Shown here one piece after another: positions 19,432-39,135 of a stretch of DNA of 64,000 bases. The position numbers and the translations under genes are program-made. The notes under the pieces are model-generated. The model made no database searches. It saw only the letters and a list, made by a program, of their open reading frames with translations, and was not told where the DNA came from. The stretch is from an uncultured Clostridia bacterium (GTDB lineage: Bacteria > Bacillota > Clostridia > TANB77 > CAG-508): NCBI GenBank assembly GCA_944390285.1, contig CALXPN010000002.1, forward strand, positions 31,762 through 95,761. Direction: 5' to 3'. Numbering within the stretch: position 1 is the first letter of the stretch; each line of letters begins with the position of its first letter.

Positions 19432-20031
19432 TTAATTATAATTTTCTAATTTTTTTAATTTCATATATAAATGTGGCCAAGAATAAATTCTTTCTATTTT
19501 ATCATCTTTTAATCCTTTATTTACTCTTGTATCCATTATAAATGTTTTTATACCAGCACTTGATACCATTTTACAATTTTGAAAACTATCATCTATAAAA
19601 ACATCTAATTTTTCTGATTTTGCAGCTATTAATTTATTTTCTGCATTTATTATTAATTTATCATAAGGAATATTATTTTCTTTTATCCAGTTAGTTGTTA
19701 TCTTTTTTACATCGAATTTATCTGTTTCCCATCTTGCAGTAATAAGTATTATTTTATTTCCTTCTTCATGAATTTTATTCAAATATTTTAAAGATAAAGT
19801 TTTAGGTTTTACGTTTGATATTATTTTTTCATAATATTCATCTAAAAATTTTAAATCTTCGCCTTCATTCCATTCATTTAAATTTCTCATATAAAAGTGA
19901 TTATCACAATTACTAATATCTCTCATTATAGGTTCTTTGTTTAAAACATCTACTGTATATTCAGATGCATATGCCATCATTACTTCATAAGTGTCTGTAA
20001 TTGTATCATCAATATCTATTCCAACTATCAT
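19432..20031 (-). CDS. HAD-superfamily 5'(3')-deoxyribonucleotidase-like hydrolase
   Basis: 199 aa; N-terminal DIDDT HAD motif I; NT5C/YorS-like architecture; sits between gatC and gatA. Confidence 0.5.
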   Translation of the reverse strand: MIVGIDIDDTITDTYEVMMAYASEYTVDVLNKEPIMRDISNCDNHFYMRNLNEWNEGEDLKFLDEYYEKIISNVKPKTLSLKYLNKIHEEGNKIILITARWETDKFDVKKITTNWIKENNIPYDKLIINAENKLIAAKSEKLDVFIDDSFQNCKMVSSAGIKTFIMDTRVNKGLKDDKIERIYSWPHLYMKLKKLENYN

Positions 20032-20070: not shown

Positions 20071-20358
20071 TTAATTTAATACTTTTGGAATTCTAAACAT
20101 CCCCTCATCTTGACTTGGTGCATTTGATAATAATACTTCTCTGTTTTCAAACTTTACAACTTCATCTTTTCTAAATACATTGCTTTTTTCATTAGCTGCA
20201 ATTGTTTCCGTCATTTCACTTGTATCTACATTGTTTATTCTATTTGCAAATTCTAAAATTTCCTGCATATCTTTAGTATATTTTTCTATTTCATCTTCTG
20301 AAAGATTTAAATCTGCAAGTTTTGCAATATGAATAACTTCTTCTTTACTTATTGCCAT
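20071..20358 (-). CDS. gatC: Glutamyl-tRNA(Gln) amidotransferase subunit C
   Basis: 95 aa; MAISKEEVIHIAKLADLNLSEDE... typical GatC. Confidence 0.85.
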   Translation of the reverse strand: MAISKEEVIHIAKLADLNLSEDEIEKYTKDMQEILEFANRINNVDTSEMTETIAANEKSNVFRKDEVVKFENREVLLSNAPSQDEGMFRIPKVLN

Positions 20359-20473
20359 TTAATTCATCTCCTTTCATAATGCATAATTATATAATGAAAA
20401 TTTAAAAAACACAAGAAAAAAGTGATATACTTGTATAAATATATATCACTTTGTAAATTTTATATAAAACAAT

Positions 20474-20665
20474 AAAATCCATATATATAATAAAAAAATA
20501 AAAATATTTCTAGTCAAGCTAGTTTTCATAAAAATTCTAAGATTAGATTTGTCAGCGCCCTCAGGAACAAGCCTGAGATTCCCTAACAAATCTAACCTAA
20601 GAATTTCTATATTCAAACTACTTTCCATTCCATATTTTTATTTTTTTATTATATATATGGATTTT
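20474..20665. repeat. Hairpin/MITE-like element, copy B (inverted relative to A): perfect 34-bp terminal inverted repeats around the conserved core
   Basis: 20474-20507 (aaaatccatatatataataaaaaaataaaaatat) is the exact reverse complement of 20632-20665. TIR sequence differs from copy A. Core retains the identical 37-nt gtcagcgccctcaggaacaagcctgagattccctaac. The track ORF 20446..20628 lies inside it and is likely spurious. Confidence 0.7.
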
Positions 20666-20678
20666 TATTATACACAAT

Positions 20679-20978
20679 TTATCTATATAATTCATCTGAT
20701 GACATTAATTTTCCATAGCAATCTTTAAATTGTCCGAAAGCTAAGAAAACAAAATCATTTGCAACTAATGCAAGCATTGTAATTAAACACATAGCACCTA
20801 TTGGTGTACAAACCAATAATGCAAGAACAGAAGCTATAGTTCCATACATCATTAAAAATCCTGAGCCTATTTTTCCAGCATATAAACGATGTACTCCAAA
20901 AAAACCTAAAAACCAACATAACATTAATGCTGTAAATCTGTTTTTTGTACTTACATTTTCATCTTTTTTATTTTCCAT
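20679..20978 (-). CDS. TM2 domain-containing membrane protein
   Basis: 99 aa; GVHRLYAG motif and two TM helices. Confidence 0.6.
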   Translation of the reverse strand: MENKKDENVSTKNRFTALMLCWFLGFFGVHRLYAGKIGSGFLMMYGTIASVLALLVCTPIGAMCLITMLALVANDFVFLAFGQFKDCYGKLMSSDELYR

Positions 20979-28931: not shown

Positions 28932-29083
28932 TTTTTATTCCTCAAATCTTCTTCTATAATTTTACAAAATCATATTATATTTTTCTACTTTTTTCAAGCT
29001 TTTCTAACAAATTCCCTTGACCAAAATTTTATTAAGATATAAAATATATGTACAAAAATTATTTTACAAATGAGGAGTTTTTA

Positions 29084-30025
29084 ATGAAAGAAACTTTTGA
29101 TTTTTATAACAGTACTTCCATAAAATCTTATAACTTAGATGAAAGAATCCGTTATCAATTAAAAATGTTAGATGGTTTAGATAATTTCACAAGAAAACAT
29201 ACAGATAATGTTGCAAATATTACATGTAGACTTTGTGAAAAATTAAATATGACAAAAGGATTTACAGTTTATTGTACTACTTGTGCATATCTACATGATA
29301 TAGGTAAAATGTTTATTCCTCCTTCTGTTTTACAAAAACCTAGTAAACTAACAGATCAAGAATTCGAAATCATGAAAACACATACTACAATAGGATATAA
29401 AATGTGTATGAATGATTTAAAATTACGTCCATATGCTGCAGGTCCATATTATCATCATGAAGCCTTAAATGGTACTGGATATCCAAATGGCTTAACTGCA
29501 GATAAAATTCCTTACGAAGCCCAAATAATAAGAGTAGCAGATGAGTTCGAAGCAATTACTGCTAAAAGGCAATATAAAAGTCACATTGGAATTATTGATG
29601 CTTTAAATATTATGATAAGTAATGCACAACCTTCTAAAATAAACAATATGTCTGATGCTATTAAAAATTTGAAAGTTGCAAATTTAGGAAAAATAGATAA
29701 AAAGATATTAAAAACTTTATTTAAAGTTATTATAGAAGATACAGAATATGAAATAGCATCAAGAATAGACTATGTAAACTTTTTAACAGAGGAAATTAAA
29801 AGAGTTGAATCAGCTAGAAAATATTATAATAAAATGATATCTACAAAATCTGAGTATAAAAGAGAGTATTTTAAAGAAGAAATAAAATGTTATCTAAAAC
29901 CACATGAAGATCCTGAAAAAATACCTCAAATGATAGATGAATTTAAAATAGCATATAAAGCTAGAAAAGAACATATTGCAAAATTATATGATGAAATTAA
30001 ACAAATAAAAAAATTGAAAGTTTAA
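29084..30025 (+). CDS. HD-GYP domain phosphohydrolase (probable c-di-GMP phosphodiesterase)
   Basis: HDIGK and HHE...GTGYP motifs. The ATG at 29084 (MKETFDF) follows GGAG; the track start at 29048 is probably too early. Confidence 0.6.
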   Translation: MKETFDFYNSTSIKSYNLDERIRYQLKMLDGLDNFTRKHTDNVANITCRLCEKLNMTKGFTVYCTTCAYLHDIGKMFIPPSVLQKPSKLTDQEFEIMKTHTTIGYKMCMNDLKLRPYAAGPYYHHEALNGTGYPNGLTADKIPYEAQIIRVADEFEAITAKRQYKSHIGIIDALNIMISNAQPSKINNMSDAIKNLKVANLGKIDKKILKTLFKVIIEDTEYEIASRIDYVNFLTEEIKRVESARKYYNKMISTKSEYKREYFKEEIKCYLKPHEDPEKIPQMIDEFKIAYKARKEHIAKLYDEIKQIKKLKV

Positions 30026-30033
30026 AAGACCTG

Positions 30034-30134
30034 ATCTATATAATATAAAAATATTGCAAATATCTTAAAGTCAAGCTAGTTTTTACAGAACTACTTTCCA
30101 AACGATATTTGCAATATTTTTATATTATATAGAT
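30034..30134. repeat. Hairpin/MITE-like element, copy C (short): perfect 31-bp terminal inverted repeats around a 39-bp core with the centre deleted
   Basis: 30034-30064 (atctatataatataaaaatattgcaaatatc) is the exact reverse complement of 30104-30134. Core ttaaagtcaagctagtttttacagaactactttccaaac matches both edges of the A/B cores. Confidence 0.6.
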
Positions 30135-30179
30135 TAGGATTAAAAAAGATAGCCATTTATTTAGACTATCTTTTTATTA

Positions 30180-32470: not shown

Positions 32471-32713
32471 ATGAAAAATAATAATAACGATAATAATAAT
32501 AATAATGAAAATGCAATAAAAATAGTAGTTGGCGATGAATCTGTATTAAATATCTCTGAAGTTAATGATTATATGAATGATTTACGTCCAAGAAAAATTG
32601 ATAATACAAATCTTATTATACCTGTACCTAAAAAGAAAATTGAAAAAACTAAAAAAGTTGCTAAAAAGAAGAAAAAAATAAATAAAACTATAAAAAAAGA
32701 AATTGAAAAATAA
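32471..32713 (+). CDS. Hypothetical low-complexity Asn/Lys-rich small protein
   Basis: 80 aa; good RBS (AGGAGGG); no family. Confidence 0.3.
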   Translation: MKNNNNDNNNNNENAIKIVVGDESVLNISEVNDYMNDLRPRKIDNTNLIIPVPKKKIEKTKKVAKKKKKINKTIKKEIEK

Positions 32714-32741
32714 ATTTCAATTTCTTTTTTTATAGTTTTAT

Positions 32742-33608
32742 TTAGTATGAATAAGCTTCATTTAAAATCACTTCATATCTTGCATAGTTTACTAATTCGT
32801 TTTTTTCATCATTCCAAATTCCAGAATCTATAATTCTTTCTTCGTCTCCTGATTTTATATCATATATATATGTTTCTTTAACATCTAAAATATTATCTTG
32901 CAAATCGTAATAAACTATTGAAAATCCAACACAATTTATCTCTTCTGTATAATTGTTTTTTAAAGTTATATTTATTTCACCATTTTTTAATTCATTTGCA
33001 ATTGAGATATAATCATTTAGATAATAATCTTTGTAACTTTCATCATAAAAATCTTCTTTAGTTATAAAAGTCTCATATCTAACTTGATTTTTGGGTAATT
33101 CTTCAAATTTTAAAAATCTTGATGAATTAGCTTTAAAATAATCTATATATTGTTTTTTAATATCTATTATTTTATTTGATTCATCATAATAAACTACATA
33201 AACCAAAATATTTGTTATATCTTCATTATTTTGATTTGTCATATTCAATATTAATTCATTATTTATACTTATTGATTGTTTTACTATTTGTATATTTTGT
33301 TTTTGTGTTTCAAAATTTGATTTTCTTATTTGTTCTTGAACTTCATAATCATAAACATCTTCATTTATATCTCTATAATCTTCATAATATTCATCACTAT
33401 ATTCAGAATCATCCTTATAATTATAATAATATAAAACTATTCCAACTACTACTATTAATATAATGGCTATTATTATATTCTCTTTATTTTTTTTCAATTT
33501 CCCTCTTACTTGTGCTTTTTTGCTATTTTCATCATCATCTAAACCATCTAATTCATCCATAAGTTTTTGATTGTCTAACTCATTTAAATCTTTTTTATCT
33601 TCTTTCAT
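32742..33608 (-). CDS. Hypothetical membrane-anchored protein
   Basis: Likely start MKEDKK at 33608 after AGGGGGA; single TM (IIIAIILIVVVGIVLYYY) then a Tyr/Asp/Glu-rich extracytoplasmic region. Confidence 0.4.
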   Translation of the reverse strand: MKEDKKDLNELDNQKLMDELDGLDDDENSKKAQVRGKLKKNKENIIIAIILIVVVGIVLYYYNYKDDSEYSDEYYEDYRDINEDVYDYEVQEQIRKSNFETQKQNIQIVKQSISINNELILNMTNQNNEDITNILVYVVYYDESNKIIDIKKQYIDYFKANSSRFLKFEELPKNQVRYETFITKEDFYDESYKDYYLNDYISIANELKNGEINITLKNNYTEEINCVGFSIVYYDLQDNILDVKETYIYDIKSGDEERIIDSGIWNDEKNELVNYARYEVILNEAYSY

Positions 33609-33724
33609 GCTATTTCCCCCTATATAAATTTTACCTATTAAAAAAATTTTTTTCAATATATTTTATAAAATAATGTATTTTTTTTTAATTATTGATATAA
33701 TTTAAAAAAATGTTGGAGGGAATT

Positions 33725-36183: not shown

Positions 36184-36260
36184 GGCGATGTAGCTCAGTT
36201 GGCTAGAGCATCCGGTTCATACCCGGCAGGTCGTAGGTTCAAGTCCCACCATCGCTACCA
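36184..36260 (+). tRNA. tRNA-Met (anticodon CAT), elongator-like
   Basis: GGCGATGTAGCTCAGTTGGCTAGAGCATCCGGTTCATACCCGG...CATCGCTACCA; cloverleaf with CAT anticodon loop and encoded CCA; near-identical to the B. subtilis elongator tRNA-Met. Confidence 0.85.
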
Positions 36261-36263
36261 TTA

Positions 36264-36299
36264 ATCAGTCGAAAGACTGATTTTTTTTTATTTTTTTTA
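36264..36299 (+). terminator. Rho-independent terminator after the tRNA
   Basis: Stem atcagtc / gactgat with loop gaaa, followed by a long T-run. Confidence 0.6.
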
Positions 36300-36488
36300 A
36301 ATTTATAAAATTGCTCAAAAAGGTTTATTTATAGCCTTTTTTTATTTTTAACTTTTTTAAAATTCTCTGAACTTTTTACAGCTTTTTTCAATTTACATGC
36401 CCAAGTACAACCCCATTTTTTCAAAAAAATTAATTTGGAGTTTAAAATTACAATCCCAAATTAAATTTGGGGTTGTAAAAATAATAAT

Positions 36489-37052
36489 TTAGATTTCTAA
36501 TTCTTTTTGTTGAATATTTTGTAATAATTTAACACTATCTAGCATATTTTCTTCAAGATAATATTTATTTACTTTTTCTATTTCTTTTTCTTTAAATTTG
36601 TCGAATACTGATGTATATGTATTTAAAGTTACTGATACATCTTTATGTCCCATTAATTTTTGAACAACCACTGGTGCCATACCGCTTTCAATACATCTTG
36701 TTCCGTAAGTATGTCTTAAACTATGTGTTGTAATATCCTCAATTCCAAAGTGTCTTTTTAATAATCTTTTTAGTTCTGTATTTACATTTTCTCTATCTGT
36801 ATATTTTCTACATTCAGGTTTAAATAATAATTTTTCTTCGTTATTTTCTTTTATATATTTTAGTATTTCTAAACCTGATAAGTTTATGTTAATAATTATA
36901 ATATCAATATTTTTATTAATAATACTTTGCATAGCTTCATTTATATTATGTGATATGTTATATATTTTTAAATTACTTATTGAGTTTGAAATTTTGTTAA
37001 TAATTTTAGACATATAATCTAAATTGTTATCAATAATCATTAGATTTTGCAT
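36489..37052 (-). pseudogene. Tyrosine recombinase/phage integrase C-terminal catalytic-domain remnant fused to a receiver-like N-terminal fragment
   Basis: HSLRHTYGTRCIESGMAPVVVQKLMGHKDVSVTLNTYTSV carries the HxxR...Y active-site region of tyrosine recombinases. The N-terminal 80 aa look like a CheY-receiver fragment, and the integrase N-terminal and core-binding domains are missing. Confidence 0.5.
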
Positions 37053-38465: not shown

Positions 38466-38975
38466 CTATCCTCCTTTATAAAAATTCTTTTTGATTTTTT
38501 TTCTTGCTCTATGTAGTCTACTTCTAACATTTATTTCAGAAAGGTTTAATTCTTTAGCTATATCCTTTATAGGTTTATCAAAATAATAGAACATATTTAT
38601 TATTTTAATATCTATTTCTTTTAAACTATTAAATGTTTCTCTTAAATTATCTATATAGAAATTTTTGTCTAAAAAATTTTCTGTATCATAATATCCGATA
38701 CTATTTTCATAATCTGATAAATTATAAGTATAATTTTTTTTTCTAAAACGTTCTCTTACTAAATTCCTTGTAATACCTGAAATATATGAGTCAAATGATA
38801 CGGTTATATTTTTTTGGTTTTTCCATAATATGAAAAAAGTATCTGCTAATATTTCTTCTTTATCTTCAACACTCAAATTATTATTAGACATATTATTGAT
38901 TATTGTTCTAATATATGGTGTATATTCGCTTATTATTTTATCTAAATCTAATTCATTGCTATTTATTGTATTCAT
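38466..38975 (-). CDS. Sigma-70 family RNA polymerase sigma factor (ECF / TcdR-like group)
   Basis: Region 2 (ADTFFILWKN) and region 4 HTH (DIAKELNLSEINVRSRLHRARKKI). Likely start MNTINS at 38975 after AAGGAG; the track start at 39083 is probably too early. Confidence 0.6.
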   Translation of the reverse strand: MNTINSNELDLDKIISEYTPYIRTIINNMSNNNLSVEDKEEILADTFFILWKNQKNITVSFDSYISGITRNLVRERFRKKNYTYNLSDYENSIGYYDTENFLDKNFYIDNLRETFNSLKEIDIKIINMFYYFDKPIKDIAKELNLSEINVRSRLHRARKKIKKNFYKGG

Positions 38976-39135
38976 TAATTGCTCCTTAATAAAATCTCTC
39001 GTATATATAGTGTAATTTTTTTTTAAAAAGTTGCACTTTATTTTTAATTTTTTATTATCAAATTTTTGCAAAAAGTGCAACATTTTTAAAATTTAAGAAA
39101 CTATATATACAAAATCTTAAGAAAGGAGGAATATT

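Follow-up and report, generated by a model that had tools for sequence, protein, structure and literature searches.

Invertons are invertible promoter or terminator switches, e.g. fimS, hin and the C. difficile switches cwpV and flgB. Other small palindromes are dispersed between bacterial genes as MITEs or palindromic intergenic repeats, among them ERIC/IRU, Correia/NEMIS, RUP, SPRITE, Nezha and Chunjie (reviewed in PMC3184786). The insertion sequences IS1397, ISKpn1, IS621 and ISPpu9 target REP sequences, or palindromic units (PMC1525189, PMC3184786). The REP/REPIN/BIME elements and their RAYT proteins form a further system of extragenic palindromes that fold into hairpins, build mosaics and were proposed to move as single-stranded hairpins (PMC2817692, PMC3333891). 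Outside bacterial chromosomes, two reports describe small flip-flop inversions at chloroplast DNA hairpins and at the hairpin termini of poxviruses and parvoviruses (PMC12928735, PMC8956199).

The element described here is a hairpin, called copy B, located between a TM2-domain gene and gatC in a 64-kb stretch of DNA from an uncultured Clostridia bacterium (the whole stretch that was analyzed is referred to as the window). It probably belongs to a family, undescribed to date, of mobile palindromic repeats of low-GC gut bacteria that are small, MITE-like and non-coding, insert at hairpin apices and have a core that flips without an invertase. No Rfam match was obtained for the family, nor any literature match for its motif strings. 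Two of its properties are unusual, namely the insertion at an apex, observed in one relative, and the invertible core, observed in this species.

Like MITEs, the family members are small (units of 109-193 nt), non-coding and multi-copy, with three copies in the window and several per contig elsewhere. They also form long imperfect hairpins in intergenic, probably co-transcribed positions in either orientation, vary in presence or absence between strains and have internally deleted and mosaic derivatives (PMC3184786). Unlike MITEs, their outer inverted repeats are copy-specific, although inner ends recur within subgroups and the arms of copies B and C are alike; no target-site duplication was found at the one resolved site, where insertion was at the apex of a host hairpin, the center is invertible and the family has no known parent IS. 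As for the REP-targeting IS, the target is a host extragenic hairpin and the flanks are a split palindrome (PMC1525189, PMC3184786), but those elements encode a transposase and use one conserved REP family, whereas the unit inserted here is ORF-free, measures 120-170 nt and has targets that differ by site. With invertons, the family shares a short segment enclosed in inverted repeats and found in both orientations in natural populations; in contrast to them, no invertase was found, the repeats are not common to the copies, no promoter is evident and the whole is a dispersed mobile repeat. With the flip-flop hairpins, the family shares an imperfect palindromic center between perfect stems with two reverse-complement isomers, apparently no dedicated invertase and recurrence among close relatives (PMC12928735, PMC8956199). 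Those are organelle non-coding loops and viral telomeres, whereas this is a dispersed bacterial family with a covarying core. As extragenic palindromes that fold into hairpins and build mosaics, the members resemble REP/REPIN elements, but no GTAG-type motif was found, neither a RAYT nor a Y1 transposase was seen in the window, and the conservation is reversed: REPINs have conserved ends and a variable center, and this family a conserved center and variable ends (PMC2817692, PMC3333891).

Copy B, its neighbors and the other copies of the window

The features of the copy B region and of the two other copies are listed below, with the strand in brackets.

20071-20358 (-): gatC, with a GatC family match
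20386-20414 (-): probable gatC promoter, TTGTGT-17 nt-TATAAT, recognized by reading and below the scan threshold
20414-20455, approximately (-): terminator-like hairpin and T-run, AAAGTGATATAT..ATATATCACTTTTTT, read from the sequence, between copy B and the gatC promoter
20474-20665: copy B, whole unit of 192 nt, hairpin between the TM2 gene and gatC
20474-20507 (no strand): left arm of copy B, 34 nt, perfect inverted repeat of 20632-20665, copy-specific sequence, identical in contigs L018-L024
20508-20631 (+): invertible segment of copy B, 124 nt, present as its exact reverse complement in contigs L019 and L023
20513-20626, approximately: conserved core of copy B, GTCAAGCTAG...ACTACTTTCC, imperfect rod-like hairpin with conserved asymmetric internal loops
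20551-20587 (+): apical motif common to copies A and B, CAGCGCC-CTCAGG-loop-CCTGAG-ATTCCCTAAC
20632-20665 (no strand): right arm of copy B, 34 nt, perfect inverted repeat of the left arm
20679-20978 (-): TM2-domain gene, stop codon 13 nt from the outer edge of copy B
14398-14590 (-): copy A, perfect 35-nt arms at 14398-14432 and 14556-14590, 123-nt invertible segment
30030-30138 (+): copy C, 35-nt arms at 30030-30064 and 30104-30138 with 1 mismatch, 39-nt remnant

An initial annotation had described perfect 34-bp inverted repeats at the ends of copy B, a center identical to that of copy A, a compensatory stem change between the two and an ORF (20446-20628) unlikely to be a gene, all of which was borne out. 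The arms are 100% complementary and 124 nt apart, and their sequence is found in two places only in the window (shuffles expect 0). The 37-nt center GTCAGCGCCCTCAGGAACAAGCCTGAGATTCCCTAAC occurs exactly twice, at 20551-20587 (+) and 14476-14512 (-), with 0 occurrences expected by chance. In the alignment of the two copies, the change of an A-T to a G-C pair on both sides of the stem is visible (TTAAATTTG/CAAATTTAA versus TTAGATTTG/CAAATCTAA), and the pattern holds family-wide. The whole unit folds into a single long hairpin of -65.5 kcal/mol (z = -13.6 against shuffles). The two ORFs inside the element, ORF 20446-20628 included, had no match in a family search.

The position between gatC and the TM2 gene, both matched on the minus strand, was also correctly reported. 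The element had however been assigned to the likely promoter or leader region of the gatC transcript, an assignment that is not supported: a terminator-like hairpin and a probable, conserved promoter lie between copy B and gatC. In gene orientation, the TM2 stop codon is followed by 13 nt, copy B, 21 nt, the hairpin with its T-run, the promoter, the ribosome-binding site and gatC. A consensus scan for promoters and terminators around copy B gave no excess over shuffles (3 promoter-like sites versus 3.8) and reported no intrinsic terminator; it passed over the hairpin because the stem has just 2 G-C pairs. In related species (L038-L042, ~81-85% protein identity) the element is absent at this site. 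There, ~15 nt separate the TM2 stop from an equivalent, ordinary terminator hairpin with its T-run, after which come promoter hexamers identical to those of the window and then gatC, and the gap between the genes measures ~100 nt versus 320 nt in the window. Because these element-free relatives keep the terminator and the promoter hexamers there, copy B has inserted behind the TM2 coding sequence, in its 3' region, and lies outside the gatC leader. An NT5C-family 5'-nucleotidase gene (19432-20031) lies between gatC and gatA, an arrangement also observed in L038-L042.

The window contains three copies of the element, A, B and the deleted copy C, all of which begin 4-13 nt past a stop codon; the spacing is 10 nt for copy A (from the end of gene 14601-15203) and 4 nt for copy C (from the end of gene 29048-30025). 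Copies A and B consist of a conserved rod-like core of ~113 nt within perfect arms of 34-35 nt that differ from copy to copy. Their segments between the arms are 89.5% identical whereas their arms are unrelated (z = -0.3 in semi-global alignment); copy A folds at -77.4 kcal/mol (z = -16.5). The remnant of copy C comprises only both core ends, GTCAAGCTAGTTTTT...ACTACTTTCC. Since other strains carry at this site a full, diverged segment of 121 nt between the arms, in both orientations, the window copy results from an 84-nt internal deletion. B and C combine the most diverged segments (77% identity) with arms of significant similarity (z = 4.0), and A and B show the opposite combination; core and arms thus have separate histories, due either to an exchange of cores between copies or to entry into a pre-existing family of palindromes. 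Each arm sequence is confined to its own copy, and the idea of guide-like or spacer-like arms matching another locus was dropped for this reason. The unrelated arms of A and B, the third copy at 30030-30138, the inversion of the core in other strains and the mobility of the element had escaped the initial annotation.

Two further observations concern these sites. Core deletions at site A (56 nt, contigs L029 and L035) and at site C (84 nt, window 30065-30103) are symmetric with 3-5-nt microhomology at the junction, as expected from slippage across a hairpin. In contig L141, an allele of gene 14601-15203 (protein P0018) is 87% identical overall with an identical 3' end followed by the same copy A, which suggests recombination within the gene. 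P0018 was considered as an intermediate relative and discarded on account of this same copy A.

Family members in gut metagenomes and the pairing of their core

Several searches were unproductive. Scanning a collection of species-representative genomes with the 18-mer CTCAGGAACAAGCCTGAG gave 16 matches of 18-20 nt, all of them chance matches, and a first metagenome pattern, GCGCCCTCAGGNNNNNNCCTGAGATTCCC, found nothing, being too strict as copy C later revealed. No match to the central motif was obtained in plasmids, phages or IMG/VR viral contigs. At the gathering score, Rfam recognized only a tRNA in the window and, at E up to 10, just spurious miRNA and snoRNA hairpins. Literature searches with motif strings returned unrelated primers only. 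The family signature AGCGCCCTCA...TGAGATTCCCTA, located within the apical motif, was defined with fixed positions taken from the diverged core of copy C. Scanned as AGCGCCCTCA-N7-13-TGAGATTCCCTA, it matched 90 stretches in gut metagenomes, on contigs of 24-31% G+C and with several per contig.

Aligning 21 diverse cores yielded a four-helix rod of 34 stem pairs. Double changes were found in 21 of the 34 pairs, and 95.2% of the cells are paired versus 32-52% when the partners are slid; none of 500 shuffles reached the observed pairing values. The single compensatory change of the initial annotation is therefore one instance of a very strong pattern, and its claim of selection on secondary structure holds insofar as pairing is maintained. 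At the level of an RNA strand, the claim is not supported. Among 711 cells, G·U pairs (~8) are not above A·C (~12), the strand of the motif relative to the upstream gene is ~50:50 across the family, and the core flips between strains. Because there is neither a G·U excess nor an orientation bias and the core flips, the constraint acts on both strands. It would concern a DNA hairpin, or an RNA hairpin that forms whichever strand is transcribed, and speaks against an RNA gene read from a single strand. The apical loop motifs persist while the surrounding stems are completely replaced; being set by the search pattern, their invariance within the 21 cores is not independent evidence.

The family members are almost always intergenic, between tandem (37), convergent (12) or divergent (9) genes, with 1 doubtful case inside an ORF. 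The outer edge of the element usually lies 0-20 nt past a stop codon. Arm lengths range from 12 to 37 nt across the family. Long, perfect, copy-specific arms that end abruptly are found outside the window in L075 (31 nt), L076 (37 nt), L121 (31 nt), L133 (35 nt), L136 (32 nt) and L110 (27 nt). Runs of A and T, which might point to a terminator, flank the composite hairpins of copy A (A6...T7) and L121 (A5...T7), and copy B has only A4/T4. The conserved CTTGAC at one end of the core has no consistent -10 partner, and the idea of an outward promoter starting from it was dropped for this reason.

One abundant class is a 236-nt repeat present at many different loci. In another gut organism (L051, L060, L071, L087 and ~40 loci, e.g. 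L087:5580-5960), the core module is contained in a mosaic repeat with many copies per genome and its own 14-nt ends, AAATTGGAATTTGT...ACAAATTCCAATTT. Besides additional blocks that vary, this mosaic repeat includes a hairpin rich in G+C, GGGGTCGC..GCGACCCC. The possibility that the abundant class resides within a larger IS was dropped, the shared unit being just ~236-300 nt, i.e. a mosaic MITE with its own 14-nt ends. Finally, the same outer core was found with a different apical motif, GGCACCCTTTCAAG...CTTGAACATTTTCC, in L091:280-540 and L136:13700-13789; the family is therefore wider than the search pattern.

Core inversion between strains

Contigs of other strains that encode exactly the same flanking proteins were taken from public metagenome assemblies. 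Those of site C were found through the other neighbor protein; the protein of gene 29048-30025 had no record. At site B, five contigs (L018, L020-L022 and L024) have the orientation of the window. In the two others (L019 and L023), the 124-nt segment is present as its exact reverse complement (0 mismatches) between identical arms and flanks. At site A, L028, L032 and L034 are in the orientation of the window (flip) and L029-L031, L033 and L035-L037 in the opposite one (flop). Among the latter, the reverse complement is exact in L036, off by 1 SNP in L031, L033 and L037, and off by 5 in L030. Site C is flop in L048 and L049 and flip in L050, which is partial. As inversion yields exact reverse complements, the cores of all three copies are invertible segments. 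Site A shows at least 2-3 independent flips between haplotypes that are nearly identical.

Assembly graphs are known to become ambiguous at inverted repeats and Logan unitigs (k = 31) end inside the arms, which could mean that assemblers are unable to resolve the segment and that the inversions are artefactual. This is very improbable. The contigs come from metaSPAdes, from MEGAHIT at k119 and from a long-read-style contig, s2648.ctg003080l (L030), which is in the flop state; the final k, 55 for metaSPAdes and 119 for MEGAHIT (k119, L037), exceeds the arm length of 34-35 nt. The orientation of the core is moreover linked to neighboring SNPs at site A, and the reverse complements are exact in otherwise identical contexts. 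As several assemblers, with k up to 119 exceeding the arm length, agree and orientation tracks linked SNPs, the flipped states are not a graph artefact. A coexistence of both orientations in sample BRZ_AQ would be expected to break contigs at the elements, and its contigs do end inside core C and at the inner boundary of arm B. The long-read-style contig L030 (1-1229) also displays gatB as four ORFs (171, 129, 55 and 73 aa) versus one gene of 481 aa, owing either to homopolymer sequencing errors or to a pseudogene.

No flipping was seen in 12 of 12 filled contigs of a copy downstream of rodA (25-nt perfect arms), all in one orientation, nor in 44 copies of the abundant class (17-18-nt arms), judged relative to asymmetric flanks. 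Flipping was met only with arms of 34-35 nt, in a comparison that spans different species; this pattern fits recombination or template switching dependent on homology length. No transposase and no intact recombinase was found in the 64-kb window, and no pair of core ends encloses an ORF in ~600 kb of loci, as would an autonomous IS partner. The only recombinase-like ORF of the window lies next to a tRNA.

36184-36257 (+): tRNA
36489-37052 (-): recombinase-like ORF, 187 aa, receiver-like N-terminus and C-terminal half of a tyrosine recombinase (HSLRH...LNTYT)

This ORF was rejected as a candidate invertase: it is degenerate, adjoins the tRNA and lacks a counterpart in the vicinity of other family members. 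Downstream of it lie ORFs without family match and a gene for a sigma-70 region-4 protein (38466-39083). The region 36184-37052 has the appearance of a degraded border of an integrated element.

Insertion sites, origin of the arms and competing explanations

The insertion site could be resolved in one relative (L109), downstream of a gene whose protein homologs are named RodA of Clostridia MAGs. The element is present there in L161 and L142-L151. The same RodA allele (P0136) is associated with a filled site in L161 and with an empty one in L152-L160. The empty allele, TTTCCGGTAG AACTT|AAGAG CTACCGGAAA, is a hairpin with a 10-bp stem (-13.7 kcal/mol) located 7 nt past the stop codon. At its apex, precisely where CTT meets AAG, the filled allele has gained 166 nt (CAATAAAAAAATAA...core...TTATTTTTTATTG). 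From this comparison, the rodA site owes its outer arm to the host stem and its inner arm to the element. In a lineage at 91% identity, the site is element-free and its hairpin is a different one. No direct target-site duplication was seen around the 166-nt insert, where a palindromic target could hide one, and none is evident at A, B and C. Where the empty hairpin has two mismatched pairs, pairing is perfect in the filled allele, a difference of three substitutions; since three are needed, it is not a simple conversion of one arm, and the empty allele could itself have diverged or be the footprint of an excision.

Other copies have a similar organization. In L075, L109, L121 and L140, the inner arm (an A-run and 3-6 nt) recurs between copies, and the outer 12-19 nt are unique and resemble a split terminator stem, as in L121 (AAAAA-GAAGTATAGCCTCT[...]AGAGGCTATACTTC-TTTTTTT). 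Insertion at the apex of a pre-existing host hairpin would thus explain why arms are copy-specific. For the copies of the window, the same origin of the arms is presumed from this relative. All same-species contigs are filled at A, B and C, including the divergent allele P0018, and gave no empty allele. In the related species, the element is absent at site A as well as at site B. The outer arm of site A, A6-CAAGTAAC...GTTACTTG-T7, resembles the terminator of a relative at that place, CAACTTAATC...GGTTAAGTTG-T-run, and no second terminator is found at this site in the window; this likeness is suggestive but weak, the sequence being AT-rich. At site B of the relatives, the ordinary terminator is the sole hairpin, and it is still intact beside copy B, so that copy B did not land in it. 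Arm lengths in the window (34, 35 and 35 nt) are suspiciously equal for the sum of a host stem and an element end, and apex insertion accommodates the discordance between arms and cores only via conversion or replacement of cores.

Two other palindromic sequences of the window were recorded in addition. A perfect, core-free palindrome with 30-nt arms and a 6-nt loop (32679-32744) overlaps the stops of ORF 32471-32713 and of the convergent gene 32742-33656; strains differ in it at one substitution and in the length of a T-run (T7 or T8). It may terminate transcription in both directions, or else represent, in the empty state, the type of hairpin that the element targets. Another one, at 60297-60344, has 24-nt arms that are 96% complementary, without spacer, between 59456-60307 (+) and 60338-60595 (-).

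The following scheme would connect these observations. The conserved unit would be a self-complementary rod of ~115-165 nt with fixed asymmetric internal loops, which enters the apex of a host hairpin just past a stop codon. The host stem would then become the outer, copy-specific arm and the AT-rich ends of the element the inner arm. As the rod folds on itself, the host hairpin could still close, and such sites would probably tolerate insertion for that reason. Where perfect arms are as long as 34-35 bp, recombination or replication template switching between them would flip the core and keep the arms identical by conversion. Flipping is an observed fact in this species and presumably requires no dedicated invertase. 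Strict Watson-Crick pairing would follow from the need for the pairing to work in either orientation, and the asymmetric loops may be the recognition sites of a mobilizing protein. The host would likely be affected through the transcript of the upstream gene, whose 3' end would carry a far longer stem-loop, and not through control from the gatC leader. A more far-reaching and less likely version is that of a new kind of structure-guided mobile module, which would recognize the apices of host stem-loops, perhaps as single-stranded DNA via its asymmetric loops, with terminator or 3'-end hairpins serving as safe harbors. Fusion of its ends with the host stem would then create long perfect palindromes that work as self-contained flip-flop switches without an invertase.

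Other explanations were weighed against this scheme. The core might be flipped by a dedicated site-specific recombinase and alter the expression of its neighbors, e.g. by forming or disrupting a terminator or RNA-stability element in the TM2/gatC transcript, which would make of it a programmed inverton, i.e. a phase-variation switch. C. difficile switches inverted by one recombinase have differing repeats; exact reverse complements, both orientations at three sites in natural strains, the repeated flips at site A, the contig breaks in a high-coverage sample and conserved asymmetric loops that could be protein sites would fit too. However, the arms are unrelated between copies and the conserved sequence is inside the segment, no intact recombinase is found nearby and no consistent promoter in the core. 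The elements sit past stop codons in any orientation to genes, members with 17-25-nt arms were not seen flipped, and the whole behaves as a mobile repeat with presence and absence alleles; a programmed switch is therefore unlikely.

The element could also be a structured non-coding RNA with stems maintained by selection for RNA folding, be it a small RNA gene or a leader that regulates the gatC operon in cis. Very strong covariation, conserved loop motifs and a location that is in every case intergenic, probably on the transcript of the upstream gene, would be in line with this. Such an RNA is nevertheless improbable in view of the pairing statistics (no excess of G·U over A·C), the lack of orientation bias and of an Rfam match, the inversion of the core between strains, the existence of insertion and empty alleles, and the terminator-like hairpin and conserved promoter that separate copy B from gatC. 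The arms, for their part, could be made by the element if ~35 bp of flank were copied in inverted orientation upon insertion, an inverted target duplication with a length ruler. Perfect, sharply bounded and copy-specific arms of 34, 35 and 35 nt, or of 31-37 nt in L075, L076, L121, L133 and L136, speak for such a process, and so does the absence of a palindrome at site B in related species. Against it, the single filled/empty pair shows that the outer arm pre-existed as a hairpin stem, arms range from 12 to 37 nt in the family, and the relatedness of the B and C arms implies that the arm partly travels with the element or belongs to a family of targets. We consider this origin doubtful, and retain the mobile palindromic repeat inserted at a hairpin apex as the probable explanation.

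If this is right, apex insertion explains how perfect inverted repeats can differ at every site, and a segment of ~120 bp undergoes recurrent inversion in wild gut populations with no recognizable invertase. Covariation restricted to Watson-Crick pairs would be a signature that separates a constraint at the DNA level, or on two strands, from RNA genes, and the conserved asymmetric loops may point to a protein partner. Such elements break short-read assemblies and create false small ORFs, of which 20446-20628 is one. Read-based screens for phase variation would call them invertons, and their recognition as a class is needed. Should the reading as a structure-guided module be true, gut Clostridia-like bacteria would carry many heritable and reversible variants of 3'-UTR structure.
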